From a virus (lineage: Duplodnaviria; Caudoviricetes): a DNA stretch of 44,700 nucleotides. The position numbers were made by a program, and so were the translations under genes. Positions 3,370-20,399 of this stretch are shown here, piece after piece (positions within the stretch are counted from its first letter, which is position 1; every line of letters begins with the position of its first letter). Location of the stretch: positions 1 to 44,700 of the IMG/VR virus record IMGVR_UViG_3300032069_000208; one strand, given 5' to 3'. The notes under the pieces were generated by a model that worked only from the letters and a program-made list of their open reading frames with translations, was not told the origin of the DNA and made no database searches.

Positions 3370-4170
3370 ATGGACCTGATATCTGAACTGGAAGGGGCGA
3401 GAAAAGATTGGCTTACTCTGGCGGCCATGACCGCCACGCATCCGGCGGCAAGCTCGGCATACGGGGAGTGCGCGAAACGGGCCGCTTGCTTGCTGTCCGC
3501 CGCCAAGCAGGAGCCGGGGCTGGACAAGCCGTTCGCCTCGTTCTGCCCGGGCTGCGGGCCCAACGTCTACATCGACGAGGATGGCTGTTGCTCATCGTGC
3601 GGGTCAACGGCTATCGGTGACGGGCTGATCCGGCTCAACGAGCGCATCCAAGCCCTCATCCGCTGTCCCGCTTGTGACGGTACGGGATTGGTAGATGGAG
3701 ATACGCCCGGGGGAGAGGCTACCTGCTATCAGTGCGAAGGCACCGGGAGATCCCGCCCCGCGCCTCCCCCTGACGGCGGCCTGATCTCTCGTCTGGCTGA
3801 CGCGTTGGACAGCGAGCATGCGTCTCGGGAGATGGTGCTTGGCCGTGGTCACCGCGAACCGTGCGAGACGTGCGCGCTGATTGTTGAAGCCAAGGAGGCT
3901 TCCGCCCTCGCCACTTCCAGCGCGGGGGAGAGGCCGGAGCACCCGAAGTTGTCCATCGCCATTCAGGAGGGCTACGAGCCTGATGCCCCGCCCCCCGCGC
4001 CCGCCGAGAAGCGGTGGAGGTGCACGAATTGCGGAGAAGTCGTGGTATTTACCGAACTCTGCATGCACGGCGGGAAATACGAGCATTCGGGCCATCAGAA
4101 AGCGCCGGGAAATCGATGGTTACTGTGGTGCGGCCCCGTGGTCGCAGCAAGTGACGGAGGGGGGGGGTGA
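3370..4170 (+). CDS. Mosaic multi-zinc-finger protein, MDLIxELE family
   Basis: CPGCG/CSSCG, CPACDGTG/CYQCEGTG, CETC, CTNCG; ends VVAASDGGGG. Confidence 0.75.
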   Translation: MDLISELEGARKDWLTLAAMTATHPAASSAYGECAKRAACLLSAAKQEPGLDKPFASFCPGCGPNVYIDEDGCCSSCGSTAIGDGLIRLNERIQALIRCPACDGTGLVDGDTPGGEATCYQCEGTGRSRPAPPPDGGLISRLADALDSEHASREMVLGRGHREPCETCALIVEAKEASALATSSAGERPEHPKLSIAIQEGYEPDAPPPAPAEKRWRCTNCGEVVVFTELCMHGGKYEHSGHQKAPGNRWLLWCGPVVAASDGGGG

Positions 4171-5900
4171 CCTATCTCTCCGTTTGCTCTGGCATTGAGG
4201 CCGCAACCGTGGCGTGGCATCCGCTGGGGTGGGTACCCATTGCATTCTCAGAGATCGAGCCTTTCCCGTGCGCCGTACTGGCTCATCATTACTCCAGCGT
4301 GCCGAATCTCGGCGACATGACCGCATACAAGGAGTGGCAAATTGGAGCAGTTGACCTTCTCGTTGGCGGCACCCCCTGCCAGAGCTTCAGCGTCGCCGGA
4401 CTCAGAAAGGGACTCGACGATCCGCGAGGCAATCTCATGCTCGTCTATCTGGCAATTGCTCGGCGGTTTGCTCCCCGATGGGTGGTATGGGAAAACGTCC
4501 CTGGTGTGATAAGCGACAAGACCGGCGCTCTCCGATGTCTTCTTGACGGGCTTGAAGAATTAGGGTATATAATTGATATTGATATACTTGATGCTCAATT
4601 TCATGGTGTCCCACAGAGACGAAGGAGAGTATTTGTATGCGGAGAACACAGAGACGATTTACTGAAAGCGAAGACAGATTCATCCGCGCTCACTATCGGA
4701 CAATGCTGGCAAGAGATATTGCACAGCATCTTGATAGAGAAATCCAACAGATTCGCAAAAGAGCAGGGAAACTCGGACTCAGCATTCCTCTCAAGAGATG
4801 GCGTGGTGAGGAGGATGCAATTATTCGGGTTGGCTGGGGAACAAAAAAGCTTCGGGAACTTGCGAAAGAACTTAATCGCGGCCTTCCAGAGGTGTCAAAT
4901 CGAGCAAAAAAACTCGGATGTTCGCCGTGGAGAAAGGGAAAAGGAACGCATTCGGGAAGACCAATCGATGGCTTCCGAAACGGGAAGCCTGTATTCACTC
5001 ACAGAAGAGTCATTGAGCAATACCTTGGAAGAAAGCTACGAAGTGATGAAATCATACATCACATCGATTGGAACAAATTCAATAACGTTCCAGCAAATCT
5101 ATATCTGTTCAAGAGCCGTTCTGCTCATCGCAAAGCTCACTGTTCTTTTGAATCCATCATCCCCGTGCTTCTGGAGCGCCGCATTATCGAGTTTGAACGC
5201 GCTGGAGGAGTTTATAGATTATGCGCGATCCGCAAGTAGCGACCTTTTTGGAGACTTGGAGCGGGTTCAGGCGTGGCGTGATTTCATCCGAGAAGCCGAA
5301 CCAACAAACGACGCTCTCGCAGATATTGGAATCGAATGTTTCGGCCAAGTATTTCCTATCCGCGAAAGCCTGCGCGGGTATCCTCCGCCGAGCCGAGAAG
5401 CGGGGGAAAAAGTTGCCCTCCCAGTTACGAGCCGCGTTGACCGAGGCGGCGAGCACGGGAACATCAAAGCAGACCATGCCTGGACGGGCCAACTAATCAG
5501 TAAGGCCGTCAACGCACATGGTGGCAGCGGGCGCATGGACGGGAAGTCGGAGACCTTCATCACCGGTACCTTGAATGCGAACGGCAAAGCGGCAGGTAGC
5601 GCAACGCAACAGGATGCCGAAACTGGGATGCTCATTGCCTCCTCCCTCCCCTCCGTCCGAAGACTTACCCCCACGGAAAGCGAAAGACTCCAAGGATTTC
5701 CGGACGGATACACAAATATCCCGTGGGGACGGAAAAGCATAAGGACATGGGCCACGGGGGACAACTGCGCAGACGGCCCGCGCTACAAGGCGCTGGGTAA
5801 TAGCATGGCCGTACCATGTATGGCGTGGCTCGGGGAACGAATCAAGCGCGTGGTCGAAGCAAGCGAAGGGGGGGGCAGGAATGAGAATAGCCTACGCTGA
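4167..5900 (+). CDS. dcm: DNA (cytosine-5)-methyltransferase with an insertion of about 230 aa
   Basis: Motif I YLSVCSGIEAA, IV GGTPCQSFS, VI WENVPG, VIII PQRRRRVF, IX RRLTPTESERLQGFPD, X RYKALGNSMAVP. Confidence 0.93.
   Translation: MTYLSVCSGIEAATVAWHPLGWVPIAFSEIEPFPCAVLAHHYSSVPNLGDMTAYKEWQIGAVDLLVGGTPCQSFSVAGLRKGLDDPRGNLMLVYLAIARRFAPRWVVWENVPGVISDKTGALRCLLDGLEELGYIIDIDILDAQFHGVPQRRRRVFVCGEHRDDLLKAKTDSSALTIGQCWQEILHSILIEKSNRFAKEQGNSDSAFLSRDGVVRRMQLFGLAGEQKSFGNLRKNLIAAFQRCQIEQKNSDVRRGEREKERIREDQSMASETGSLYSLTEESLSNTLEESYEVMKSYITSIGTNSITFQQIYICSRAVLLIAKLTVLLNPSSPCFWSAALSSLNALEEFIDYARSASSDLFGDLERVQAWRDFIREAEPTNDALADIGIECFGQVFPIRESLRGYPPPSREAGEKVALPVTSRVDRGGEHGNIKADHAWTGQLISKAVNAHGGSGRMDGKSETFITGTLNANGKAAGSATQQDAETGMLIASSLPSVRRLTPTESERLQGFPDGYTNIPWGRKSIRTWATGDNCADGPRYKALGNSMAVPCMAWLGERIKRVVEASEGGGRNENSLR
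4637..5239 (+). CDS. HNH endonuclease with two N-terminal Myb/HTH-like repeats, nested in dcm in another frame
   Basis: Own RBS AAGGAGAG; FTESEDRFI and WRGEEDAII repeats; HRRVIEQYLGRKLRSDEIIHHIDWNKFNNVPANL. Confidence 0.85.
   Translation: MRRTQRRFTESEDRFIRAHYRTMLARDIAQHLDREIQQIRKRAGKLGLSIPLKRWRGEEDAIIRVGWGTKKLRELAKELNRGLPEVSNRAKKLGCSPWRKGKGTHSGRPIDGFRNGKPVFTHRRVIEQYLGRKLRSDEIIHHIDWNKFNNVPANLYLFKSRSAHRKAHCSFESIIPVLLERRIIEFERAGGVYRLCAIRK
5221..5496 (+). CDS. Small ORF overprinted on dcm in the third frame
   Basis: GGAGGAG RBS; LSQILE..KYFLSAKACAGILRRAEKRGKKLP..LRAAL, a peptide I recall from alternate frames of other phage C5-methyltransferase genes. Confidence 0.65.
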   Translation: MRDPQVATFLETWSGFRRGVISSEKPNQQTTLSQILESNVSAKYFLSAKACAGILRRAEKRGKKLPSQLRAALTEAASTGTSKQTMPGRAN

Positions 5901-6801: not shown

Positions 6802-6995
6802 TGGAGTACACGACGAACAATACGAGTGACAAGATTGTCATAACGACGTGGCTGGTAACTATCCCGACGTGTACGCTGCGGCAGAGGCTTCGCCTCCTCT
6901 GGAAGGCGCTCTTGTCGCTGCCTCGCTTCCGTAGGGAGATCAACACCGCCGAGTGGGTGCCGTCATACAGCGTGACCTGGTGGAGGCGGAAATGA
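6801..6995 (+). CDS. Hypothetical protein
   Basis: GGAGGTG RBS, TGATG coupling. Confidence 0.55.
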   Translation: MEYTTNNTSDKIVITTWLVTIPTCTLRQRLRLLWKALLSLPRFRREINTAEWVPSYSVTWWRRK

Positions 6996-8942: not shown

Positions 8943-9061
8943 AGTATGAAATGGGGTCTGGGACACCGGGAGGATGAAATACGAAGTTGACAGGATAAGT
9001 TCCAAGAAGTTCTTTCCTTCCGTAGATAGTGGCCCGGAAACCTCATACATGGGGGATAGTC

Positions 9062-9090
9062 TTGACGGACCGCGCTATTCTATCCATAAT
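9062..9090 (+). promoter_or_regulatory. Sigma70-like promoter for sugar block 1
   Basis: TTGACG-N17-CATAAT, 30 nt before ATG 9121. Confidence 0.6.
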
Positions 9091-9120
9091 CCCTTAGTAA
9101 TAACATGCACAGGGGGTGTA

Positions 9121-10452
9121 ATGGAGCTTAGGGACGATGTAAAGAATCTGATAAAAAAGATCCGAAAATTCCCAAATCGGGAAACGATGCTGAACACCTA
9201 CAAATATAACGAGGGCGTGCGAAAAGCTTGGACCCCTATGTGGGTCCGAAATTTAGCAAGAACATATCAAGAAGTTGAGAGACGTTTCGCCGGCGAGGAT
9301 GTCGATATCAAGACACTCCCGAGAGTACAGAATGAACCCATATTGATGTTGGGCTCAGGACCGTCGCTGGACGATTGGATACCGCGTTTAAAATCCTGGA
9401 AGGGCGCGATTGCCTGTTCTACTTCACAACTTCTTTTGCTAGAGTATCTTGAAATTGCTCCCACGTATCTGTTCCTGATTGATTGCGACCCCAATCCTGA
9501 GATCATCAAGCTAGTTGGGGACTATCAAGGGGACCAAAGCAAAACTGTTTTTATCACGCATCCTCAGGTTCCAAGAGAATACTTGGAAATCTGGCGGGGC
9601 CCGGTGAAGTTCTTCCGGATGTTGGACCCTGGGGACGAGTTTTCGACTAAATACGTTCCGATGGCCGTGGGCTGGATAAATCAGAATAAATCCCCGCAGG
9701 ATTCGCATATCGGCTCCTATGTTCTGAATAGCGGCAATGTGGTAAACGCAGCTATCCCGGTTTTGGGCGGGCTAGGATACGCTCCCATTTTCGTTTGCGG
9801 GTACGACTTGGGATATCCGAAGGGCGTCTACAGGGGTTCGTCGGTAAACAGAATCGACGGCAAGTTGGAATTGCAACCTCCGGCGAAAATGCCTTCGCAG
9901 AAAGTGCGACCGATCAAATATGAACGGGGAATCAACGGCGTTCTGTCTGATGAGTTGTGCTATTTTTACAAGTATTCTTTTATGATCCTGTACGGTCTTG
10001 GGAATGTTCCGGTGTTGTCGTGCAGCCGGGGTCTGCTTGGGGAAGTTCCTTATATCGATCCAAGGGCGGTAGTGGCAACGCAAGGGCGAGGATTTGACGA
10101 ATTGCTAAGGACACCCGTGGAAGCGTATGAGATCGGAAAAGAATATTTGCACACTCGGCAGATTTATATCCTGAGAACCGATTTTCAGACGGCGACCGTT
10201 AACATCTTTGCCAAAGGCGGATGGTGGAAGCGGTTAAAGTTCCGCCTGTACTGGCACTGGCAGCAATCCCGGCCCTGGGCATGGAAAGGAGATAGAGTTG
10301 GTCTGTTCACCACGGCATGGAGGACATGGAAGGTTGGGTTGAAGAGGCGGCAACAGGAATTGGCGGCTAAGCCAGTGAGGCCTCAAATAACGCTGGCGAA
10401 GAAACGCAAGAAGGCAAAGCGCAAAATTAAAAAGTCGGTGCCCCATGTTTGA
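9121..10452 (+). CDS. maf: Maf/DUF115-family protein, putative nonulosonic-acid protein glycosyltransferase
   Basis: PILMLGSGPSL..APTYLFLIDCDP and SGNVVNAAI..LGYAPIFVCGYDLGY motifs; directly upstream of pseB; start chosen from promoter and AGGGGG RBS. Confidence 0.72.
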   Translation: MELRDDVKNLIKKIRKFPNRETMLNTYKYNEGVRKAWTPMWVRNLARTYQEVERRFAGEDVDIKTLPRVQNEPILMLGSGPSLDDWIPRLKSWKGAIACSTSQLLLLEYLEIAPTYLFLIDCDPNPEIIKLVGDYQGDQSKTVFITHPQVPREYLEIWRGPVKFFRMLDPGDEFSTKYVPMAVGWINQNKSPQDSHIGSYVLNSGNVVNAAIPVLGGLGYAPIFVCGYDLGYPKGVYRGSSVNRIDGKLELQPPAKMPSQKVRPIKYERGINGVLSDELCYFYKYSFMILYGLGNVPVLSCSRGLLGEVPYIDPRAVVATQGRGFDELLRTPVEAYEIGKEYLHTRQIYILRTDFQTATVNIFAKGGWWKRLKFRLYWHWQQSRPWAWKGDRVGLFTTAWRTWKVGLKRRQQELAAKPVRPQITLAKKRKKAKRKIKKSVPHV

Positions 10453-11443
10453 CGGGGCACGTATTCTTATTACGGGCGGAAGTGGATCATTCGGAACGCA
10501 TTTTGTCGAACATATTTTCTCCGCCTACAATCCCGAGAAGGTTGTCATATTCAGCCGTGGAGAGAAAGCGCAATGTGAAATGGAGGACCGCTTTGGATAC
10601 TATAAGGCGAGGATGCGCTTCATTCTTGGCAGTGTGACGGATCAGGATCGGATTTCACGGGCGTGCGATGGAATTGATATTATCGTACATGCCGCGGCGC
10701 TAAAAGTGGTTCCCAAACTGGAATACAATCCCTTGGAATGCCACGACGTGAACGTAGTGGGTACCCGGAACGTGATTAACGCGGTGATCGAACGCCAGGT
10801 GCCTAACGCGGTGTTCATAGCGACGGACAAGGGTGTAATGCCGGTGAACTACTACGGATATTGTAAAGGGATGGCCGAACGAATGTGGCTGGAAGCCAAC
10901 TATCTCAAACCGTATTTCAAGATAGTCAGGTACGGCAATATCATGGGCTCCCGGGGCTCGGTGATTAACTACTTCATGGATTTGAAGAGGGCGGGGATCA
11001 AAGAGTATCCGTTGACGCATATGGACTGCACGCGCTTCTGGGTGGACTATTCAGAGGCCATAGCGCTTCTGCTTCAAGCGATAGAAAACAAGGCCGGGGT
11101 TACGCTGGCGAGCAAGGCCAAGTCTTTCAAAGTCAAAGACCTGATAAAGGCTATCTACCTACGGGCGGACCTGAAGGTGATCGGCTTGCGAGAAGGTGAG
11201 AAGATCCATGAGACCTTGGTAAGCGAGTATGAGGCAAGAAGGGCAAAAGAACTGCCGACATGCTACCGGATTTTCCCGGCGTACTCGTATGACGATGAAA
11301 TTCTATATCCCAAAGAGGAAGGTTCGGATATGAAGAAAGCCGTGACTTCAAATGACCCCGCGTACCTGATGAACGTAAAAGAGTTGCGTCGGAAGGTTGA
11401 TGCATTAGGGGGACCTCGTGAGAGATCCATACGACATAGTTAG
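10445..11443 (+). CDS. pseB: UDP-GlcNAc 4,6-dehydratase (PseB/FlaA1 type)
   Basis: ITGGSGSFG, HAAALKVVP..EYNP, ATDK..PVNYYG..K, VRYGNIMGSRGSVI, TRFW, GLREGEKIHE. Confidence 0.92.
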   Translation: MFDGARILITGGSGSFGTHFVEHIFSAYNPEKVVIFSRGEKAQCEMEDRFGYYKARMRFILGSVTDQDRISRACDGIDIIVHAAALKVVPKLEYNPLECHDVNVVGTRNVINAVIERQVPNAVFIATDKGVMPVNYYGYCKGMAERMWLEANYLKPYFKIVRYGNIMGSRGSVINYFMDLKRAGIKEYPLTHMDCTRFWVDYSEAIALLLQAIENKAGVTLASKAKSFKVKDLIKAIYLRADLKVIGLREGEKIHETLVSEYEARRAKELPTCYRIFPAYSYDDEILYPKEEGSDMKKAVTSNDPAYLMNVKELRRKVDALGGPRERSIRHS

Positions 11444-12038
11444 GGACTTTGAGAAAGCCTTGTCCGAATACACGGGTGCGGACTACTGTGTCGCGCTAAA
11501 CTCATGCACGGCAGCCTTGAAGCTATGCTATGGGTGGTACGTGCTTCACGGTGGACGCTCTGTGGAGATCCCCTCAAAAACTTATCCCAGTGTATGGATG
11601 CAGGCGGCCATTATAGGGCTTCAGGTCAAGCCTTCGGGGCCATGGGAGGGAGTCTATAATCTCCGCCCTTCCAACATATGGGATTGCGCCAAGCGATTGA
11701 CCGTCGGGATGTACCGGTGCGCCCAATTTCAATGTCTGAGCTTTCACCCCCAGAAACCTCTGGGCTTGGCCAATGGGGGTGGGGCGATTCTCCACGATAA
11801 TGCAGAGGCGGATAGATGGTTTCGCAAGATGAGATTCGACGGTAGAACCGAAGGTGTGCCAACCCGAGATGATGAATATCAACAGCTAGGAGAGCACTGC
11901 TACATGTTTCCGGCAACGGCGGCGGAAGGGCTGCAAAAGCTAAGCATTTATGCGCGCGAAATCCATCACGCCGATCAACCGGCCGAATTGGAGTTATACC
12001 CTAATATGTCAAGGTGGTATTCGACATGGCGCAAGTGA
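11418..12038 (+). CDS. pseC: DegT/DnrJ/EryC1/StrS PLP aminotransferase (PseC-like), short form
   Basis: FEKALSEYTGADYCVALNSCTAAL and SFHPQKPL..GGGAI (PLP lysine); only 206 aa. Confidence 0.8.
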   Translation: MRDPYDIVRDFEKALSEYTGADYCVALNSCTAALKLCYGWYVLHGGRSVEIPSKTYPSVWMQAAIIGLQVKPSGPWEGVYNLRPSNIWDCAKRLTVGMYRCAQFQCLSFHPQKPLGLANGGGAILHDNAEADRWFRKMRFDGRTEGVPTRDDEYQQLGEHCYMFPATAAEGLQKLSIYAREIHHADQPAELELYPNMSRWYSTWRK

Positions 12039-12646
12039 TCTTCGACTTGGGGTCCGGGCTCAGCACGCACAATGATCAGTACTACATCCGCTCCATCATG
12101 GACTCTATCAAGGCGGCGGATACGGGCAAGCATGAAGTTGTGTTGAAGTTCCAGCTATTTTCGGATCAACCTCCCAACATGCCGCTGGATCAATTGATGT
12201 TCAATGCGGCCTATGAGTACGGAGCGAAACTAGGCTACAAAGTGACGGCAAGTGTGTTTGATGCGCCGAGTTTGAAGTTTCTGCTTAACTTCGAGGTTCC
12301 CTTCATCAAGATAGCATGCCGGCCGGAGTTGTATTGGATCATAGGGGAGGTCCCTCGCAAGCTAAGTGTTTACTGTAGCGTGGCGGACTTGGGAGACGCG
12401 GTGCCTGATGGCGTCGAGGTTGCGATGTTGTGTGTGCCCAAATATCCGGCCGACATCGCGGAGTACCGGGCGCTGTATGACAACCGGCTCTCCGGGGCGA
12501 TTTCAGATCATACGGCGGGATTGGCGTTGTTCAACGAGCTAAAGCCGAAAATATGGGAGAAGCACTTTGTCTACGAGCGGGAACCGGCTAATCCCGACGC
12601 GGGGCCGTTTGCCCTCACGGTAGAAGATCTGGAAAGTTTGCTATGA
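12026..12646 (+). CDS. pseI: NeuB/PseI-family nonulosonic acid synthase, barrel domain only
   Basis: LKFQ, ASVFD, PFIKIAC, LCVPKYPA, ISDHTAG, WEKHF, PDAGPFAL. Confidence 0.82.
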   Translation: MAQVIFDLGSGLSTHNDQYYIRSIMDSIKAADTGKHEVVLKFQLFSDQPPNMPLDQLMFNAAYEYGAKLGYKVTASVFDAPSLKFLLNFEVPFIKIACRPELYWIIGEVPRKLSVYCSVADLGDAVPDGVEVAMLCVPKYPADIAEYRALYDNRLSGAISDHTAGLALFNELKPKIWEKHFVYEREPANPDAGPFALTVEDLESLL

Positions 12647-13122
12647 TCGATCTTGTTCCGATCACTGAACAAATAGCGATTATGGCGGCCGATTGGCGTA
12701 ACGCCAATCCTGAGGCTTGCCGGACTCCGGTTTTTTCCACGAAAGATAGTCAAAGAGACTGGTTTCGGAGCCTGAAGTACAAACCTCATAAGTACTGGGC
12801 TGTCATGGCTGGGCCGCAGGCGGTGGGAATTGCTGGGCTAACGCATGTTACAGATTGGTCGGGGGAGATATCTCTGGTGTTGAACCCGGCCAAAAGGGGG
12901 CATGGATACGGACGTGCGGCTGCCGAGGCTTTGATAGGACAGGGCTTTGATATCATGGAACTGTTTGTGATCTATGGAGAAACCTATCTGTGTGCTCCTT
13001 CAAATCCCTTTTGGCACCATATATTGGCCAATTACAATCCCCGCTGGGTGCGATTACCCAACCGAAAGCTTTGGCAGGGCAAGTTGTACGATAGCGATTA
13101 CTTCTCCATTAGGAGAATCTGA
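12643..13122 (+). CDS. GNAT N-acetyltransferase (PseH-like)
   Basis: WRN..QRDWF..GEISLVLNPAKRGHGYGRAA..GFDIMEL; position within the sugar operon. Confidence 0.75.
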   Translation: MIDLVPITEQIAIMAADWRNANPEACRTPVFSTKDSQRDWFRSLKYKPHKYWAVMAGPQAVGIAGLTHVTDWSGEISLVLNPAKRGHGYGRAAAEALIGQGFDIMELFVIYGETYLCAPSNPFWHHILANYNPRWVRLPNRKLWQGKLYDSDYFSIRRI

Positions 13123-13643
13123 TGCGGTGGGTGTGCCTAATTGTTGGCGCAATCTGCGGGGCCATCTTGGGTTCGACAAACGTGTTTGCCCCTTTACACG
13201 AGTTTTACCACGTAGCGGTGGCCGGCAAGCATGGTATCGAGGCGGTCATTACCTCATGGAGTACGGCAGAACTGGCCGAATTCAATTTCCCCGCTATCTT
13301 CGCCGGCTGGTCGGCGCAGATGTGGAGCGGTGCGATAGCGGCTGTTGTGTTCGCGGTCGTCGGCAGGCATACGAGGGCTATGCTGTTCACGGGAGCCGGC
13401 GGGGTAGGCTACGCAGCAGCCGCCTGGGGTCGGGCATTCGGCAGCTATGATTTCAACGAAGCGATAAAGCTTTACCTGGCCAGAGCCCTTTCCTCATCGG
13501 ATCAGTTGCTCGTGTGGGGGTATTTGCACGAGGAGATAACCAGACGGTGGACGGTCATTGGTCTGCTGGTCATAGGGTTGGCGGTGCTTGTTGTGGTGGT
13601 CATGGTATGGCGGGACAAACGCAAGTTCAGTCTCGACTTTTAA
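13122..13643 (+). CDS. Multi-TM protein with HExxH motif (M50-like metallopeptidase?)
   Basis: PLHEFYH next to hydrophobic segments; about four TM helices; TGATG coupling. Confidence 0.55.
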   Translation: MRWVCLIVGAICGAILGSTNVFAPLHEFYHVAVAGKHGIEAVITSWSTAELAEFNFPAIFAGWSAQMWSGAIAAVVFAVVGRHTRAMLFTGAGGVGYAAAAWGRAFGSYDFNEAIKLYLARALSSSDQLLVWGYLHEEITRRWTVIGLLVIGLAVLVVVVMVWRDKRKFSLDF

Positions 13644-13647
13644 GGCA

Positions 13648-13673
13648 AGGCCGGCATTACGCCGGCCTGTTTG
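13648..13673. terminator. Hairpin between convergent genes, probable terminator
   Basis: AGGCCGGC-attac-GCCGGCCT followed by GTTT. Confidence 0.55.
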
Positions 13674-13794
13674 GTCTCTGCTTTTTCGGTCCTCCCTTTT
13701 TCCCATTCTCGCGGGCGGCTCTCCGTTTTGCCTCGCTCTTTGATTTCCCCCCCAGTTTCCCCATGAGGGATGCGGCACGTGATAGGTCGCTCAT
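13657..13794 (-). CDS. Small basic protein (45 aa, not in the ORF track)
   Basis: MSDLSRAASLMGKLGGKSKSEAKRRAARENGKKGGPKK; AGGAG RBS. Confidence 0.7.
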   Translation of the reverse strand: MSDLSRAASLMGKLGGKSKSEAKRRAARENGKKGGPKKQRPNRPA

Positions 13795-13834
13795 TCCCTT
13801 TTCTCCTTTCTCCGAACCGAATGGCGATACCGGC

Positions 13835-14044
13835 CTATGTCAAAACCGTTTGAACGATAGCGTGCCCTTTGCTGATCCGGTAGGCACCGGGTGCCGCGAA
13901 TGCCGCCGAGAACGCTTCGGATTTGGTCGCTTTCCACGTTTTGCCGCAATCATAGGAGAAGTACCATTTGTCCCATGATAGCCGGCCGATCCAGTGGAAA
14001 GACACTCCGTCTACGACGGTGGTTCCGTAGCGTTGTAGTCTCAT
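13835..14044 (-). CDS. Hypothetical protein
   Basis: GAGGAGGT RBS, 69 aa. Confidence 0.65.
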   Translation of the reverse strand: MRLQRYGTTVVDGVSFHWIGRLSWDKWYFSYDCGKTWKATKSEAFSAAFAAPGAYRISKGHAIVQTVLT

Positions 14045-14114
14045 TTTCGTTTACCTCCTCGTCTTTTCGGCTATGGCCGGCCGGGGTTATGGAGCCCCGC
14101 GCCGCTCTGCCGGC

Positions 14115-14318
14115 CTACTCGTCCTCGCGGTCCGGGTCCAGGTACTCGAGGGCCTGGTCGACTTCATCCTCAGTGAGCGTGGCATTGGCTGCAAGCTCTC
14201 GCGTGTACACTGCGAGAGCCGCGTCAAGGGATGCACGCGAGACCAGCCCCCCCTGCGCGTCATTGCCGTACACTGCGTAGGCGAGTGTAACGATTGCGTC
14301 AAACTGTTCCTGGTTCAT
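14115..14318 (-). CDS. Small acidic hypothetical protein
   Basis: GGAGG RBS; MNQEQFDAIV..EDEVDQALEYLDPDREDE. Confidence 0.7.
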   Translation of the reverse strand: MNQEQFDAIVTLAYAVYGNDAQGGLVSRASLDAALAVYTRELAANATLTEDEVDQALEYLDPDREDE

Positions 14319-14339
14319 GCTTGTATCCTCCATGGGCAG

Positions 14340-14368
14340 AGTATGGACCCAATCGTTTGGGTTGTCAA
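14340..14368 (-). promoter_or_regulatory. Leftward sigma70-like promoter with a palindrome in the spacer
   Basis: TTGACA-N17-CATACT; ACCCAA-N4-TTGGGT at 14347..14362. Confidence 0.65.
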
Positions 14369-14459
14369 GGGCGATTTTGTAGAATTTTAATGACATACGG
14401 CTGTATAGTAGTAGGAGAGGACTTGACAAACCGGGCCGATCTATGGTAGGGATGAAGTA

Positions 14460-14714
14460 ATGGCAAAGAGTCCGCAAGTGGCGCGACATTCGAGAGCCCG
14501 GCAAACTACATGCACTACTAAGGGATCTATGATGCGGCCCAGATTCGCTCTGTTGCCGTCAATCTGCGCAGCGTGCGGGGAGACCAGTTGGCTAGAGATG
14601 GGTTGGTGGGTAGACGATACGATCATGGGCATATCATCCGGTGGGCGTTGGAATTGTAAGCGATGCGGCCCGGATGCACTACCATGGAGCAACCATCCGG
14701 GGATGCATGGCTAA
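14460..14714 (+). CDS. Small zinc-binding hypothetical protein (start may be near 14530)
   Basis: CAACG..CKRCG; overlaps the terS start. Confidence 0.45.
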   Translation: MAKSPQVARHSRARQTTCTTKGSMMRPRFALLPSICAACGETSWLEMGWWVDDTIMGISSGGRWNCKRCGPDALPWSNHPGMHG

Positions 14715-15402
14715 GCGCCGTCTATCTATTAAACAGCAGGCATTTGTCGCCGCTATAGCCAATCCAGCCAGCCCCACCTATAGTAACGGTACTCGCTCTA
14801 TCCTCGCTACTCACCCCGGTGTCTCATCCCTAGGCTCAGCAGCAGTAAGCGCTTCCCGTTATCTAACCTCCGATAAGATCCGCTCCGCTATCGATGATAT
14901 CCTCAGACAACAGGGACTAGGGATTGAGGTACGTACTGCTAAAATTCGAAGCATATTGGACGTCGATACCTACGAGATAGAGCAGATAGACCGCAAGGGG
15001 CGGGTAAAGAGCGCTACCAGGCTGCCTAATCACAAAATCCAACTCCAAGCGATTCACTTGCTGAACAAGTTGGACGGCAGCTATGCTAGGGCCGAGGGGA
15101 TCGGTCATGCGCAGGCCAGGGTGTTGGAGCCGCTGATAGAGGAGTACACGAGGAGGTTGCGGGCTGAGCTTAGGGCGGAGGCTGCCTCTGAGGGGGCCGT
15201 AGCGGGTCAAGGTGAGATCCTGGAGGGTCAGGTGGTATCATCCCCTCAGACTGAGCAGGCTAGCGCTGGCGAGCCGCAGTCACGCGCAGGCAGCGCAGCG
15301 CAAGCAGACCAGGTAGATGCTGAGACATCACTAGAGGTTGTAGACAAAAGTAGACAAGATGGCACGCAGCCTCAGGCGGAGGGTCAATGCGGGGCAAGGT
15401 GA
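14707..15402 (+). CDS. terS: Terminase small subunit
   Basis: LSIKQQAFV..NGTRS..SAAVSASRYLTSDKIRSAI HTH pattern; upstream of terL. Confidence 0.75.
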   Translation: MAKRRLSIKQQAFVAAIANPASPTYSNGTRSILATHPGVSSLGSAAVSASRYLTSDKIRSAIDDILRQQGLGIEVRTAKIRSILDVDTYEIEQIDRKGRVKSATRLPNHKIQLQAIHLLNKLDGSYARAEGIGHAQARVLEPLIEEYTRRLRAELRAEAASEGAVAGQGEILEGQVVSSPQTEQASAGEPQSRAGSAAQADQVDAETSLEVVDKSRQDGTQPQAEGQCGAR

Positions 15403-15560
15403 GATTCAGGAGGGTCAATCACCCCCCCCTACCGGCAGCCCGAGCGCTACAGACACGCCAACGAGTGCTGACAGCATGCAAGCATCGGCAGCCTGTGCTG
15501 AGACATCACTAGCAGTTGTCAGCAAAAGTAGACAAGAGGACGGGCAGGAGCAGGTGGAGA
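15205..15560 (+). repeat. Imperfect tandem duplication of about 180 bp at the terS 3' end
   Basis: TGCTGAGACATCACTAG..CAAAAGTAGACAAGA at 15318..15359 and 15496..15537; CAAGGTGAGAT..GGAGGGTCA also occurs twice. Confidence 0.8.
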
Positions 15561-15653
15561 CGCAGACGGGGGTAGGGGGTATCCCCCCCCGTGTTGAGAA
15601 TAATGAATAGTTCACTTCTACACGATAGATTTTTTTCTATAGGGAGTAGGCAG

Positions 15654-15743
15654 ATGATTATACAACTGACGGTAGGGGAGTTGAGCATACTGATAGGGGT
15701 ATGCGTGGTGCTGGGGATGCTATTGGGGAGGCGGGGGATTTGA
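15654..15743 (+). CDS. 29-aa single-TM peptide coupled to terL
   Basis: MIIQLTVGELSILIGVCVVLGMLLGRRGI; GGGAG RBS; stop overlaps TTG at 15740. Confidence 0.5.
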   Translation: MIIQLTVGELSILIGVCVVLGMLLGRRGI

Positions 15744-17302
15744 CCAAAGTAGAGACTGAGAAGTACAAGAAGATTCTGGAGGATGTTGGGGGGGATGAGA
15801 GGTCGGCCACGACTCTATGGCTGAAATGGAAATGTCTGACCGATCTATTTTTTCTGGGCTACGAGATATTGGGATTGAAAGAAGCACGAGACAAGCGAGG
15901 GCGGAAGCTTGTGGACCCCGTGTTTCATTCGTGGTTGGCGGGGGTGTTGAACACCACGGATGACGTGATGGTAATCGTGCCCCGGCGGTTTATGAAGACC
16001 ACGTGGGTGAAGATCAAGTTGCTGCAAAACATCCTACGCGATCCCTTCATTCGTCAGGCTCTATATTCGAGCACGGCCGATTTGGTGGAACAGGAATTGT
16101 TGTCGATCAAGCGCATGGCCTCAAGTCCGAGGTTGATGTCGCTGTTTGGCGAGGTATTGGTGGACCCTGGCCCCAAGGGGATGGGTTGGCAGATCAACCG
16201 GGGCAATCAGTTGACGATTTTCAGGGACCCGAAGTTGGGCACCCCTCCCCAGGAGGCGCAGATTGAAGCATTCGGAATCGGTGGAAACCCTGTGGGAAAA
16301 CACTTCGACCTACACATATATGATGATATCGTTACCGATAAAAACTCTCAGACGATGGAACAACTTAACAAGACCCGAGAGTGGTACGGCTACATACAAG
16401 GTGTCCTGGAACCTGGTGGACAAGAGATATACATTGGAACTCCATACCACTACGAAGACCTCACCAACTTCATCCAGAAAGAAGAAATTTTCGACCACGT
16501 CTACAAGCGAAGTTACCAAGAAGCAGGCAGGATAATCTATTCCTATTACACCGAGGCCATGATCCGAAGGTTGAAGAAAAAATATACCCCCTATCAATTC
16601 TCCTGTCAGATGGAGTGCAACCCTCAGCCGATGGAGGATCAGCTCTTCCCTCCTCCGCAACCGACCTTTGATACCCTGCCTCCGGGGAAGTACAACTACT
16701 ACATCGCCGTGGACCCGGCGGCCACCGTCACGGCCCAATCGGATGAAACGGCAATCGTGGTGGCAGCGGTCAACGAGATCTCCCACGTGTACGTGGTAGA
16801 GGCGCTGCATTTCAAGAAATCAGGCGATGAGATTGCCGAAATATTGCTTCGGTTGAACGAACGCTACAACCCGCGTAAGATTGGAATTGAGTTAGGCCTG
16901 CAAAGCCATCTGAAATCGGTCATAGAGCTTACCAAGTCCAATTGGGAAGCCATGCAGAGAAAACCCATCCATATGCCCATTGAACCCATCCCCATCGGAC
17001 GCGATCGAAGCAAATATCAGAGGATCAATCTGACGGTAGGATCGTTTGTCCGCTCCAATCGTATGCACATCTCAAACAATCTCCTGGACTTGATGAAGCA
17101 AATGGGATTGTACAACAAGAATTACTCAGGTAAAGACGACCTGGTGGACGCACTTTCGATGTTGTTCTCAATTGTGGAGCAGTTCTCATTCCGCTATTGG
17201 CGCGATCCCCTAGGACTCGTAAAGAAGGGTTTCACCTACTTTGAAGACTTCTTCAAACCAAGGAAGAAGTACCTGTCCTACAATGAGAGGTTCAGCCAAT
17301 GA
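15740..17302 (+). CDS. terL: Terminase large subunit (start 15740 or 15701)
   Basis: Walker A-like VPRRFMKTT, Walker B GKHFDLHIYDDIV, IGTPYH, nuclease IAVDPA..SDETAI..DDLVDALS. Confidence 0.93.
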   Translation: MTKVETEKYKKILEDVGGDERSATTLWLKWKCLTDLFFLGYEILGLKEARDKRGRKLVDPVFHSWLAGVLNTTDDVMVIVPRRFMKTTWVKIKLLQNILRDPFIRQALYSSTADLVEQELLSIKRMASSPRLMSLFGEVLVDPGPKGMGWQINRGNQLTIFRDPKLGTPPQEAQIEAFGIGGNPVGKHFDLHIYDDIVTDKNSQTMEQLNKTREWYGYIQGVLEPGGQEIYIGTPYHYEDLTNFIQKEEIFDHVYKRSYQEAGRIIYSYYTEAMIRRLKKKYTPYQFSCQMECNPQPMEDQLFPPPQPTFDTLPPGKYNYYIAVDPAATVTAQSDETAIVVAAVNEISHVYVVEALHFKKSGDEIAEILLRLNERYNPRKIGIELGLQSHLKSVIELTKSNWEAMQRKPIHMPIEPIPIGRDRSKYQRINLTVGSFVRSNRMHISNNLLDLMKQMGLYNKNYSGKDDLVDALSMLFSIVEQFSFRYWRDPLGLVKKGFTYFEDFFKPRKKYLSYNERFSQ

Positions 17303-18414
17303 TTCGCTATTGCCGGCGTTGTCTTCTGCCCTCAACAAAACCGGATCTGTGGATTAACGAAGAGGGAATATGTTCGGCCTGCCTGAACTACGAGGCCCGA
17401 GAGAAGGTGGATTGGGCAGAACGTGAAAAGGAATTGAAAGCACAGTTGGAACTTCACAAAACAAAAGCGGACTACGACGTGATCGTTCCCGTCAGCGGCG
17501 GCAAGGACTCTCATTTCCAGACCATCAAAATGCTGGAGTACGGCATGAGACCTCTGTGCGTAAATGCCTCCACGGATGCTCTTTCTCCTATAGGACGAGC
17601 GAATATCGAGAATCTAAAACATCTGGGCGTGGATCTCATCGAAGTATCGACGAATCCCGTTCTGCGGAGACGGATCAATCGTCTTGCTTTGGAAAGGGTT
17701 GGAGATATATCGTGGCCCGAACATGTTTCTATCTTCACCATCCCTGTGCGAATCGCAACCCAGATGGGAATACCACTGATATGCTGGGGAGAAAATCCGC
17801 AGAATGAATATGGAGGACCGAAAGGTTCTGGAGGCTTTCAGTCTCTTGACAACCGATGGCTTCAGGAGTTCGGCGGACTTCTCGGACTGCGGGTTTCCGA
17901 TCTGTTGGAGGAAGGGTTCACACCTAAAGACTTGATTCAGTACCGCTATCCTCCGAAAGAAAAACTGGAGCAGTTGGGACTGCATAGTTTCTTCCTAGGC
18001 GATTACCTGCCGTGGGACGGGAAGTCCAACGCACAAATCGCAGTCGATCACGGCTTTAGCCTTTACTCGTTCACCGTGGAAGGATCAGTGGTCAACTATG
18101 AAAACTTGGACAACTACCAAACGGGAATCCACGACTTTTTCAAGTTCCTGAAGTTCGGTTTCGGTCGGGCTACCGATATCGCCTCCATGCATATCAGGAG
18201 AGGTTACATTTCGCGTCCTGATGCGCTGGAGGTGGTCCGGACCCGAGATGGTGCATTCCCATGGACTTACTTGGGCAAACGCATAGAAGCTATCCTCGAT
18301 CCGCTTCAAATGAGCGTGGCGGATTTCATAAAGGTGTGTGAGAAGTTCACGAATTGGACGCTGTTCAAAAATCGAGACGTCACACATCTGGAGAAATACG
18401 ATAATGTTGGCTAA
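17299..18414 (+). CDS. N-acetyl sugar amidotransferase (PseA/PtmG/WbpG family)
   Basis: YCRRCLLPSTKP..GICSAC, PP-loop VPVSGGKDS, GDISWPEH, WGENPQNEYGG, KFLKFGFGRAT. Confidence 0.9.
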   Translation: MIRYCRRCLLPSTKPDLWINEEGICSACLNYEAREKVDWAEREKELKAQLELHKTKADYDVIVPVSGGKDSHFQTIKMLEYGMRPLCVNASTDALSPIGRANIENLKHLGVDLIEVSTNPVLRRRINRLALERVGDISWPEHVSIFTIPVRIATQMGIPLICWGENPQNEYGGPKGSGGFQSLDNRWLQEFGGLLGLRVSDLLEEGFTPKDLIQYRYPPKEKLEQLGLHSFFLGDYLPWDGKSNAQIAVDHGFSLYSFTVEGSVVNYENLDNYQTGIHDFFKFLKFGFGRATDIASMHIRRGYISRPDALEVVRTRDGAFPWTYLGKRIEAILDPLQMSVADFIKVCEKFTNWTLFKNRDVTHLEKYDNVG

Positions 18415-19105
18415 ACGAATCATCCCCACGATTCTTTGTAAGGGCGCAAACGTCGTCAAAGGCAAGCAATTTTCGGCCGACCGCATTGTCGGAAACGTCA
18501 TGCAGACCGTGGAAGTTTACAACCTGCGCTGGGTGGATGAACTGGTGGTTTTCGATGTAGAGGCTCGGGCACTCGGAAGATGTATTTCCCCCGATTTCGT
18601 CTCCGAGATAGCCTCGCGGAACTTCGTGCCCTTGACCGTGGGCGGGGGCATTCGCAGCGTAGGGCAGGCAAGACAATTGATCCAGAACGGCGCGGATAAA
18701 GTCAGTGTAGGATACAATTTTGGGAAGTCAAGCCTAGTATCGGAGATAGCCTCCGCGTTGGGGTCGCAGGCAATCGCGGCCTGTATCAACTATGTATCCC
18801 CTCGGGATGCACTCATGTTTGCCAAGAGCGCCCAGAAAGCAGGAGCAGGAGAAATAATTCTCCAGTGCATCGCCCGGGACGGAATGATGGAGGGATATGA
18901 TCTTGAAACAGCCTTCTTTGTGGCTTCATCTGTTGACATTCCCGTTGTCTTATCAGGGGGCGCTGGTACTTACGAGCACCTATGGCAGGGCCTCCAACTC
19001 TGTGACGCGGTGGCTGCCGCCGCCATGTGGACATTTACAGATTCCACGCCCCAGGAAGCCAAGAAATATCTGAAAGACAAAGGAATAGAGGTGAGAATCG
19101 TATGA
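18404..19105 (+). CDS. HisF-like cyclase subunit associated with the sugar amidotransferase (WbuZ/HisF2 type)
   Basis: MLAKRIIPTIL..VVKG, PLTVGGGIRS, GADKVS, GAGEIIL..RDGMMEGYDL, IPVVLSGGAG. Confidence 0.9.
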   Translation: MLAKRIIPTILCKGANVVKGKQFSADRIVGNVMQTVEVYNLRWVDELVVFDVEARALGRCISPDFVSEIASRNFVPLTVGGGIRSVGQARQLIQNGADKVSVGYNFGKSSLVSEIASALGSQAIAACINYVSPRDALMFAKSAQKAGAGEIILQCIARDGMMEGYDLETAFFVASSVDIPVVLSGGAGTYEHLWQGLQLCDAVAAAAMWTFTDSTPQEAKKYLKDKGIEVRIV

Positions 19106-19686
19106 GCGAGGTATGGTCGGAAAGTTTCGGAGATGAATACACGGTCAGAAATGACCGAGATTTCCAACCCAGGCGGACGTTCTTTCTTCAACTGTTCGCC
19201 AAATACCGCATAGAAAGCATCCTGGAAATAGGATGCAATAACGGGATGAACCTCGACATCATATCCCAGACCATGACATCGGCTAAGAACGCATGGGGCT
19301 GCGACATCAATCAGAAGGCGTTGAACCTTCTTCACGTCCGGCATAAGGAAATCAACGCCGTGTGGGCCTCGGGATACGATACACCCTTCAAGGACGAATG
19401 CTTTCAGTGCGTAATGACCGCAGGAGTCCTGATTCATCAGCGACCGCAGGACGTGGAACGCATGATGCAGGAAATCATCCGTGTCTCAAACAAATACGTG
19501 CTGGCCATGGAATACTACGCCCCGATTTTCCAGGAAATCCCCTACCGGGGGAACGAGGGAGCGCTGTTCAAGGGTCCATACGGAGAAATCTATGAGAAGC
19601 GATACGGACTGAAGCTTTTGGAATCGGGATTTCTGAGCAAGCACCAGGGTTTTGATGACGTTACGTTTTGGATGCTGAGAAAATAA
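19102..19686 (+). CDS. Pseudaminic-acid-biosynthesis-associated SAM methyltransferase
   Basis: WSESFGDEYTVRN, ILEIGCNNGMNL, GVLIHQ, EYYAP..IPYRG..ALFK. Confidence 0.85.
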   Translation: MSEVWSESFGDEYTVRNDRDFQPRRTFFLQLFAKYRIESILEIGCNNGMNLDIISQTMTSAKNAWGCDINQKALNLLHVRHKEINAVWASGYDTPFKDECFQCVMTAGVLIHQRPQDVERMMQEIIRVSNKYVLAMEYYAPIFQEIPYRGNEGALFKGPYGEIYEKRYGLKLLESGFLSKHQGFDDVTFWMLRK

Positions 19687-20399
19687 TGATCAGACCGTAT
19701 CCATTCGTAGTTGCGATCATTCAGGCCCGTATGGGATCTCACCGGTTTCCCGGGAAGATGATGGCCGATCTTGGCGGACGGCCGCTCATCAACTGGTCCA
19801 TCGAACGATTGAAGATGTGCAAACGGGTCCATGAAATAGTGGTGGCAAGTCCAAATAAAGAACTCGTGGAGGCCGCCTACGACGCCGGAGTGCTTGGATT
19901 CCACGATACGGGAGACGAAAATAACGTTCTTGGACGGTATTTGCGCTGTTCCAACTGGTGTTCGGCTGATGTGGTGGTGAGAATAACAGGAGATTGCCCC
20001 TTCATCGACCCTGAGATAGCGGATAATGTCGTAAAAGGCTTTCTGGAAAATCATGTCGACATTTCCACTAACGTTTTGCACCGGACTTTTCCGAGAGGAT
20101 TCGATTCCGAGGTTTTACATATTAACGTCCTGAAACGCATATTCCACCTTACCCAGGACCGCGGATACAGGGAGCATGTAACATTATTCGCCTACGAGCA
20201 TCCCGAATTATTCGTCTTTCATAGCATATTGGATTCCGAGGATAATTCACGATTTAACGTCTCAGTAGATACCCCTGCCGATCTTGACAAATTGAATATT
20301 TTGGTGGCCTCCTTGAAGAAGGATATCTCCTGCACTTGGCGGGAGATAACGGAGGCACTGAAGAATGGCGAATTGGATCGCAGGGGCCATCCAGCATAA
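19686..20399 (+). CDS. spsF: SpsF-type acylneuraminate cytidylyltransferase (probable PseF equivalent)
   Basis: AIIQARMGSHRFPGK, VRITGDCPFIDP, TFPRGFDSEV, REHVT, VDTPADL. Confidence 0.88.
   Translation: MIRPYPFVVAIIQARMGSHRFPGKMMADLGGRPLINWSIERLKMCKRVHEIVVASPNKELVEAAYDAGVLGFHDTGDENNVLGRYLRCSNWCSADVVVRITGDCPFIDPEIADNVVKGFLENHVDISTNVLHRTFPRGFDSEVLHINVLKRIFHLTQDRGYREHVTLFAYEHPELFVFHSILDSEDNSRFNVSVDTPADLDKLNILVASLKKDISCTWREITEALKNGELDRRGHPA

Follow-up and report, generated by a model that had tools for sequence, protein, structure and literature searches.

In a mycobacteriophage DNA methylase (gp65), the ShiLan domain, published in 2025, is a 202-codon insert that hides an out-of-frame HNH gene while the host frame remains open (PMC11855218; PMC9957025), and phage Applejack provides a further hidden-HNH case (PMC12613952); for these and the other papers cited here, our statements rest on the accessible parts of the texts. 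Related situations are the genes-in-pieces arrangement of Aeh1 mobE in nrdA (PMC3045599), the intronless homing of T4 free-standing endonucleases (PMC2988022), and a cyanobacterial dnaX intein with an out-of-frame endonuclease, where it is chiefly the endonuclease frame that is under purifying selection (bioRxiv 10.64898/2026.09.14.751524). As for the host gene, M.EcoHK31I is an alpha/beta heterodimeric C5 cytosine methyltransferase whose beta open reading frame (ORF) lies in another frame of alpha (PMC2836561, PMC3404938), and the N-terminal 42 residues of beta are dispensable (PMC2836561). Here we analyzed a dcm gene in the window, i.e., the whole 44.7-kb virus record IMGVR_UViG_3300032069_000208, which also encodes a terminase, a portal protein, and NinG. 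We consider it probable that a likely homing-type HNH cassette sits after motif VIII of a dcm gene that already carried a nested beta ORF, that it is likely unspliced, and that translation of the dcm frame would continue across it, adding a domain predicted to be helical, the cassette bringing its own ribosome-binding site (RBS) and a new start for beta.

The dcm ORF, termed alpha (4167 to 5900; like all features below, on the forward strand), begins with GTG and encodes a C5 cytosine methyltransferase of 577 amino acids (aa) (PF00145, E value of 7e-45; TIGR00675). Its motifs I to X are all in one frame, with the catalytic PC at aa 70-71, ENV at 109, motif VIII at 150, IX at 498, and X at 544. 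The 200-aa HNH endonuclease gene spans positions 4637 to 5239 and the 91-aa beta ORF positions 5221 to 5496. The ORF list and a frame check confirmed the preliminary description of this DNA, in which the nested ORFs each occupy a different forward frame; its statement that all three forward frames are in use holds across the locus, but simultaneous coding is limited to the 19 nucleotides (nt) from 5221 to 5239, where alpha, the end of the HNH gene, and the start of beta coincide. The proposed RBSs were also recovered: a Shine-Dalgarno (SD)-like site for the HNH gene (AAGGAGAG, 4622 to 4629), spelled by the Arg codons of motif VIII, and GGAGGAG (5204 to 5210) ahead of the 91-aa ORF. The dcm frame is continuous through the insert (4638 to 5313, about aa 158 to 382) and then, as described, runs into motifs IX and X (5658 to 5820, with IX beginning at 5658 and X at 5796). 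The third frame contains 12 stops across the HNH gene, and no sigma-70-like promoter was found between window positions 4000 and 6000. Contigs of the probable source run, which are not independent of the window, had even depth and the same letters across the insert.

Related loci were retrieved through the HNH frame and not the alpha frame. A locus search with the single HNH protein gave no match; alignment and pattern searches did find loci, and a hidden Markov model built from 34 HNH proteins matched at least 260, of which the 34 best were kept (≥127 bits, the next scoring 102). These 34, among which are the window itself and a contig represented twice, fall into 21 clusters at 90% and have pairwise identities of 30 to 75%; locus counts are lower bounds throughout. 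In 34/34 loci, the HNH gene stands directly after motif VIII and the alpha frame has no stop, versus 7 to 29 stops in the third frame. As a control, 190 other HNH ORFs were evaluated in the alpha-type frame over 150 codons, and only two were open, those of ShiLan and of another phage locus (L097), both of which are hidden insertions themselves. When the HNH gene of the window was recoded synonymously with its protein fixed, the alpha frame was open in 0/2000 trials with locus codon usage, in 0.2% with shuffling of its own codons, and in 0/2000 with uniform usage; over the 21 clusters, the highest alpha-open rate under the synonymous-recoding null was 8.6%. The difference between 34/34 loci and 2/190 controls sustains the earlier proposal that read-through is selected. 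Further alleles with open dual frames, which the preliminary description had suggested looking for, are present in all 21 clusters, and the dcm-frame stops that it had named as a counterindication are absent from all of these homologous inserts. A read-through insert was also contained in 41 other long Dcm proteins, a set biased to open frames by construction. Among the 30 loci with enough contig, alpha extends to motif X in 23 (21 by pattern; L337 and L328 matched X only).

An out-of-frame HNH gene in a methylase gene, a stop-free host frame, and a patchy distribution place the locus among hidden insertions of the ShiLan kind. The general arrangement is already published, according to the accessible part of the ShiLan paper (PMC11855218). 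The two cases differ in several respects. The ShiLan host gp65 has a DPPY motif, whereas the window host is a C5 methyltransferase with a nested beta ORF; the ShiLan HNH protein has zinc fingers, none of which were found in the window HNH protein, whose Myb-like repeats stand in their place and which matches ShiLan only over residues 98 to 168, at 39%. The accessible text on ShiLan finds no SD sequence and describes the host-frame product as of low confidence except for a small helical bundle (PMC11855218), in contrast to the SD-like site and the predicted helical, constrained product seen here, and the window cassette, unlike ShiLan, restarts a third gene. The ShiLan family in the strict sense, defined by full-length homology to a zinc-finger HNH protein, a gp65-type methylase, and the ShiLan site, does not include the locus. 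Because the methylase class differs and the HNH proteins match only in the core, we regard the window lineage as independent of ShiLan. Our literature search found no account of this C5 methyltransferase/Myb-HNH family or of the beta restart, although the supplements or repository of the ShiLan paper may list it, and the element is not described in the accessible parts of bioRxiv 10.1101/2025.01.02.630785 and PMC3706429. What is new is the dual-coded host gene, the recoded RBS, the beta restart, and the selected read-through domain, and the three-product version is apparently unpublished. The control locus L097 (1703 to 3320) is another phage dcm that carries, between its motifs IX and X, a different HNH gene in a shifted frame; the host frame is open, the relative frame is the same as in the window, and the dcm has a nested beta-like ORF. 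This is probably a second-site hidden insertion of independent origin.

We then looked into the protein encoded by the alpha frame of the insert. The third base of HNH codons is the second base of alpha codons. At HNH four-fold sites where no base gives a stop, identity was 0.49, versus 0.27 expected at saturation, and four-fold sites of the alpha N-terminus had an identity of 0.27 to 0.37. Conserved columns (p ≤ 0.01) made up 35 of the 118 testable ones in the insert versus 8 of 104 in the control region, and the third base was more conserved than the second in 19/197 columns versus 1/157. Alpha residue 222 is L, I, or M in 21/21 cases, whereas the HNH protein has V, N, S, D, A, or T there. 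Computed per sequence, the alpha product had 2.6% proline and a helical moment of 0.92, compared to 4.6 ± 0.3% and 0.82 ± 0.01 in stop-free resampling. AlphaFold2 (39 sequences) predicted a helical insert, with a predicted local distance difference test (pLDDT) of 71 to 93 in most 10-residue blocks and <65 around residues 191 to 210 and 251 to 280, and a complete catalytic core (M.HhaI match, Z of 21.4, root mean square deviation of 2.7 over 223 residues). Fold searches with the full alpha model were filled by methyltransferase-core matches, and the insert had no named match in the ESM Atlas (feature scores of 0.86 to 0.87, TM of <0.4 by query). The sequence comparisons show amino-acid-level constraint on the alpha insert and are evidence for its selection as a protein, and the models indicate that it likely encodes a folded helical domain. 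The "neutral tolerated loop" of the preliminary description does not agree with these data: site conservation, resampling, and AlphaFold2 give the product the appearance of a constrained, mostly helical domain.

Several observations count against such a domain in a working enzyme. The ESM Atlas model of whole alpha is poor (pLDDT of 0.53), AlphaFold2 confidence may be partly borrowed from covariation imposed by the HNH frame, and the conserved columns are not phylogenetically independent. Between phages Bombitas and Constella, 6/6 changes are synonymous for HNH and nonsynonymous for alpha; since the few changes between near-identical copies favor the HNH frame, alpha is the weaker constraint. 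Finally, alpha breaks between the insert and motif X in 7 of the 30 evaluable loci (L330, L241, L082, and four cluster J phages). Insert-free relatives of the cluster J phages break in the same alpha region. These breaks, together with a large phage m5C methyltransferase that, by analogy, was inactive in Escherichia coli according to the accessible text of PMC5537653, would fit a long alpha that is inactive as a methyltransferase and whose open frame only avoids polarity or feeds ribosomes to beta or downstream genes. We consider this unlikely, as stop avoidance leaves the residue-level conservation and the proline depletion unexplained, motifs I to X are retained in 23/30 loci, and the beta restart is conserved.

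The 91-aa ORF has 584 relatives in viral contigs, and it also exists outside insert alleles. Among the 80 beta loci kept, 78 have an insert-free dcm in which beta reads across motif VIII in the +1 frame; upstream of that motif, the beta frame is free of stops for a median of 88 codons. The separate frame and RBS that the preliminary description gave for this nested ORF stand, but the ORF is the preexisting beta of the host with a new start. In 19 of the 21 insert clusters, stops occur in the beta frame within the last 45 codons before motif VIII, and in 12/21 a new beta ATG lies 16 nt ahead of the HNH stop. In the window, the original N-terminus survives as a 55-aa remnant in the ORF list (4342 to 4509), which stops just past the end of motif VI. 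In alignments, the restarted beta consists of ∼30 residues resembling the old beta segment, followed by the conserved core; its insert-supplied N-terminus reaches to ∼5313, where the host core (LSxxLE...YFLS...ACxGILRRA) begins. This core starts 58 to 61 nt past motif VIII in 31/38 dereplicated insert-free alleles and 736 nt past it in the window. Comparison with insert-free dcm alleles, a check that had been recommended to define the junctions, gave a net insert of ∼675 to 678 nt in the window and of exactly 684 nt in cluster J phages, where the 3' junction is sharp. The dead upstream beta frame, the new ATG, and the segment resembling the old beta together suggest that the dual-coded motif VII-VIII DNA was in effect duplicated around the HNH gene, the upstream copy retaining alpha and the downstream copy beta.

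Beta itself is likely, by analogy with M.EcoHK31I, a methyltransferase piece made as a separate chain, because longer homologues fuse the beta module to the motif-IV half or to motif IX/X. At least 6,495 longer proteins contain the module; among the best 120, it is fused behind the motif-IV half in 35 and ahead of motif IX and/or X in 51 (to motif IX in 49), although some of these fusions may be assembly indels. Beta also weakly matches positions 294 to 341 of E. coli-type Dcm (E value of 0.009), at the start of the variable region, and a Protein Data Bank search with the beta profile gave no sequence match. The likeness to M.EcoHK31I lies in the gene arrangement, in which the large-subunit gene contains a small ORF in a second frame (in 78/80 beta loci), and the dispensable N-terminus of that beta would fit the shortened beta of the window; motif IX is in beta in M.EcoHK31I and in alpha here. 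The literature passages found gave no support for nested methyltransferase subunits in a Sinorhizobium prophage. At other loci, including L330 and L021, the beta frame continues into the target recognition domain (TRD) and motifs IX-X in an M.AquI-like split, some cases of which may be assembly indels. We also noticed that the beta core is matched at 59 to 65% in about 500 plasmids, mostly from E. coli, that include P1-like plasmids (H67 to H94); in the P1-like plasmid rows listed, beta lies under a Dam-family methyltransferase gene or under no gene, and has no separate annotation.

The HNH protein belongs to the HNH_3 family (PF13392) and consists of two Myb-like helix-turn-helix repeats followed by the core, a short C-terminal helix, and a hairpin. 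It has 33 homologues at 45 to 69%, and H122, H141, H142, N150, N154, H164, and H168 are unchanged in 34/34 HNH proteins. Its model had a pLDDT of 89.7, and in a fold search the top matches were Myb domains, with every E value >0.001. Intact beta-beta-alpha-metal His/Asn residues combined with DNA-binding modules are what is expected of an HNH homing endonuclease, and the nested gene is likely selfish.

The distribution of the element among dcm alleles is patchy. In a quick tree of motifs I to VI, which has long branches, a single clade of insert alleles was rejected (p-AU of 2e-10; 20 insert versus 38 insert-free rows), and the insert state changed 12 times, at least 3 of them forced by well-supported branches; the 38 rows are dereplicated from 62, and L164 and 18 of the 80 beta loci dropped out for want of a usable N-terminus or motif. 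Between the window and locus L165, the alpha N-terminal part is 71% identical and the HNH protein only 37%. Cluster J mycobacteriophages, nine records of which have the HNH protein at 50% identity, provide matched pairs. Constella and Thibault share with Bombitas and Yeet the insert and a tract from ∼+90 to motif VIII at 99.1 to 99.7%, versus 70% in the flanks. The insert-free phages Dove and Beem are 99% identical to Constella downstream and 85% upstream, and insert-free Porcelain is 98% identical to Bombitas on both flanks; in the tract, insert bearers are 55 to 57% identical to insert-free alleles. That two backgrounds only 70% alike contain a 99%-identical cassette, and that both have insert-free counterparts, argues for lateral spread. 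Both the tree test and these pairs bear out a patchy, laterally moving element. In the cluster J comparisons, the 5' tract is one-sided, opposite the sharp 3' junction, and as read from the alignments the pattern fits a recent transfer in which flanking DNA was co-converted on one side only, as is known to occur with free-standing phage endonucleases whose cut site is distant from the insertion site (PMC2988022). In the dcm genes of seven cluster J loci, insert bearing and insert free (L320 to L323 and L340 to L342), we also observed a variable-length G run after beta that shifts the TRD frame, motifs IX-X being annotated as a separate gene; this may be phase variation, a natural split, or decay.

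Upstream of the insertion, the flank that appears to move with the element (4500 to 4636, left end approximate) comprises motifs VII-VIII and is marked by low G+C content (0.45 versus 0.57 to 0.68 further upstream), the dead beta frame, and an acidic strand. This acidic signature before DAQ, which replaces A-W/Y-R, was found in 20/20 insert rows and 0/38 insert-free rows. An SD match run of ≥5 at motif VIII was present in 11/21 insert clusters and in 0/38 insert-free alleles, and AGR codons specify the motif VIII Arg in 53/74 insert versus 18/147 insert-free cases. The RBS that the preliminary description had seen in motif VIII is thus recoded in insert alleles.

The history of the cassette can be read in other ways. 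HNH and alpha N-terminal identities correlate (Spearman, 0.68), therefore much of the history is shared by both, and ordinary recombination could also move a cassette; both points weaken the case for homing. The same correlation, the deep divergence with an intact frame, and a best PHROG match to a D5-like transcriptional regulator would be expected if the cassette were domesticated, the Myb-HNH protein serving the phage in regulation or attack on rivals and the patchiness stemming from recombination and loss. This is rather unlikely in our view, given the single fixed site in 34/34 loci, the invariant catalytic His/Asn residues, and the occurrence of a near-identical cassette in two backgrounds that are only 70% alike, its 3' junction being sharp and its 5' tract one-sided.

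As the preliminary description had stated, there was no sign of splicing or of an intein. The locus had only a chance snoRNA match in Rfam (E value of 3.9), and 15 sequences gave a consensus fold of -1.08 kcal/mol with no compensatory pair; neither result points to the conserved catalytic RNA structure of group I or II introns. A contig joint from 4018 to 5849, tried as a candidate splice, was rejected, since it falls on a repeated gene-end motif (D4). The ends of the insert look like a short target duplication, as was noted for ShiLan (PMC11855218), and could on this ground belong to an RNA intron of an unrecognized type. Such an intron is very improbable in the face of the Rfam and folding results, and also because the HNH gene occupies nearly the whole insert, an open and constrained alpha frame would be needless if spliced, and excision would leave the upstream beta frame dead. 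Excision at the protein level appears equally far-fetched. In most alleles, the first residue of the insert is a Cys (C158, invariant in 39 proteins), as a noncanonical intein might require, but it is missing from the Bacillota and L082/L166 alleles; no intein family match was found among the window proteins and no conserved intein termini (N-terminal nucleophile, C-terminal His-Asn) in the insert alleles. The Hint fold is beta-rich, unlike the all-helical model of the insert.

We therefore favor the homing-type, unspliced cassette and propose the following sequence of events. The HNH protein, translated from the SD-like site in motif VIII, would nick or cut the 5' half of dcm in alleles that lack the insert, and repair would copy the cassette and a long stretch upstream of it, the copying of which probably also renders the allele resistant. 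In this process, motif VII-VIII DNA, which codes for both alpha and beta in insert-free alleles, would in effect be duplicated, alpha being kept upstream and beta downstream. Selection on the methyltransferase would hold the frame open and keep its 225 additional residues low in proline and amphipathic, and alpha together with beta would thereby remain enzymatically active. Similarly to mobE/nrdA and the T4 endonucleases, the endonuclease gene would lie unspliced inside a host gene, sequence created by the insertion would join the host protein, and flanks would be co-converted; mobE splits NrdA into two chains, whereas the host chain of the window would be continuous through the nuclease gene. 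The dnaX case resembles the window in that an endonuclease overlaps an open host frame, but there the intein removes the product; in the window, no intein was seen and both frames are constrained.

Elsewhere in the window, a gene-end module of 29 nt, present at 4135, 5847, and 7357, brackets dcm, and G runs stand at both dcm ends (4159 to 4167 and 5868 to 5876), a minor contig having one extra G at the second. Repeated gene-start modules (RBS plus MDLI-ELE) occur between 2511 and 7745, with 75-nt copies at 6985 and 7590 that are 95% alike; the gene-start and gene-end modules may serve as a scaffold on which small accessory genes are shuffled by recombination. Around the terminase gene, a sugar-modification-like cluster (8974 to 20399) contains MptE-like, epimerase/dehydratase, DegT aminotransferase, NeuB, and GNAT genes, as well as His-biosynthesis-like, methyltransferase, and cytidylyltransferase genes. 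An ORF at 6 to 596 has an N-terminus with pentapeptide-like repeats.

The locus also exposes an annotation gap, as the beta ORF is unannotated under most matches seen and the HNH gene is absent from some cluster J records. Cultured phages of Mycobacterium smegmatis hold both states in matched backgrounds (Constella/Thibault versus Dove/Beem; Bombitas/Yeet versus Porcelain), and the questions raised in the ShiLan paper, on splicing, homing, and host enzyme activity, are therefore directly testable. The cassette would represent a means by which a homing nuclease can reside, with no need of splicing, in an already dual-coded gene. It also provides sequence evidence for a read-through product that is selected as a protein, beyond mere tolerance, and thus for a natural instance in which overprinting gave rise to a domain. 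A bolder version, which we put forward only tentatively, is that the shifted nuclease frame has become a true, newly arisen folded domain of the methyltransferase, a helical module of 225 residues that overprints an active HNH gene, docks on the co-travelling acidic strand, and is required for or alters methyltransferase activity. If this were true, one DNA stretch would encode two unrelated folded proteins, home between phages, and rewire a two-subunit gene.

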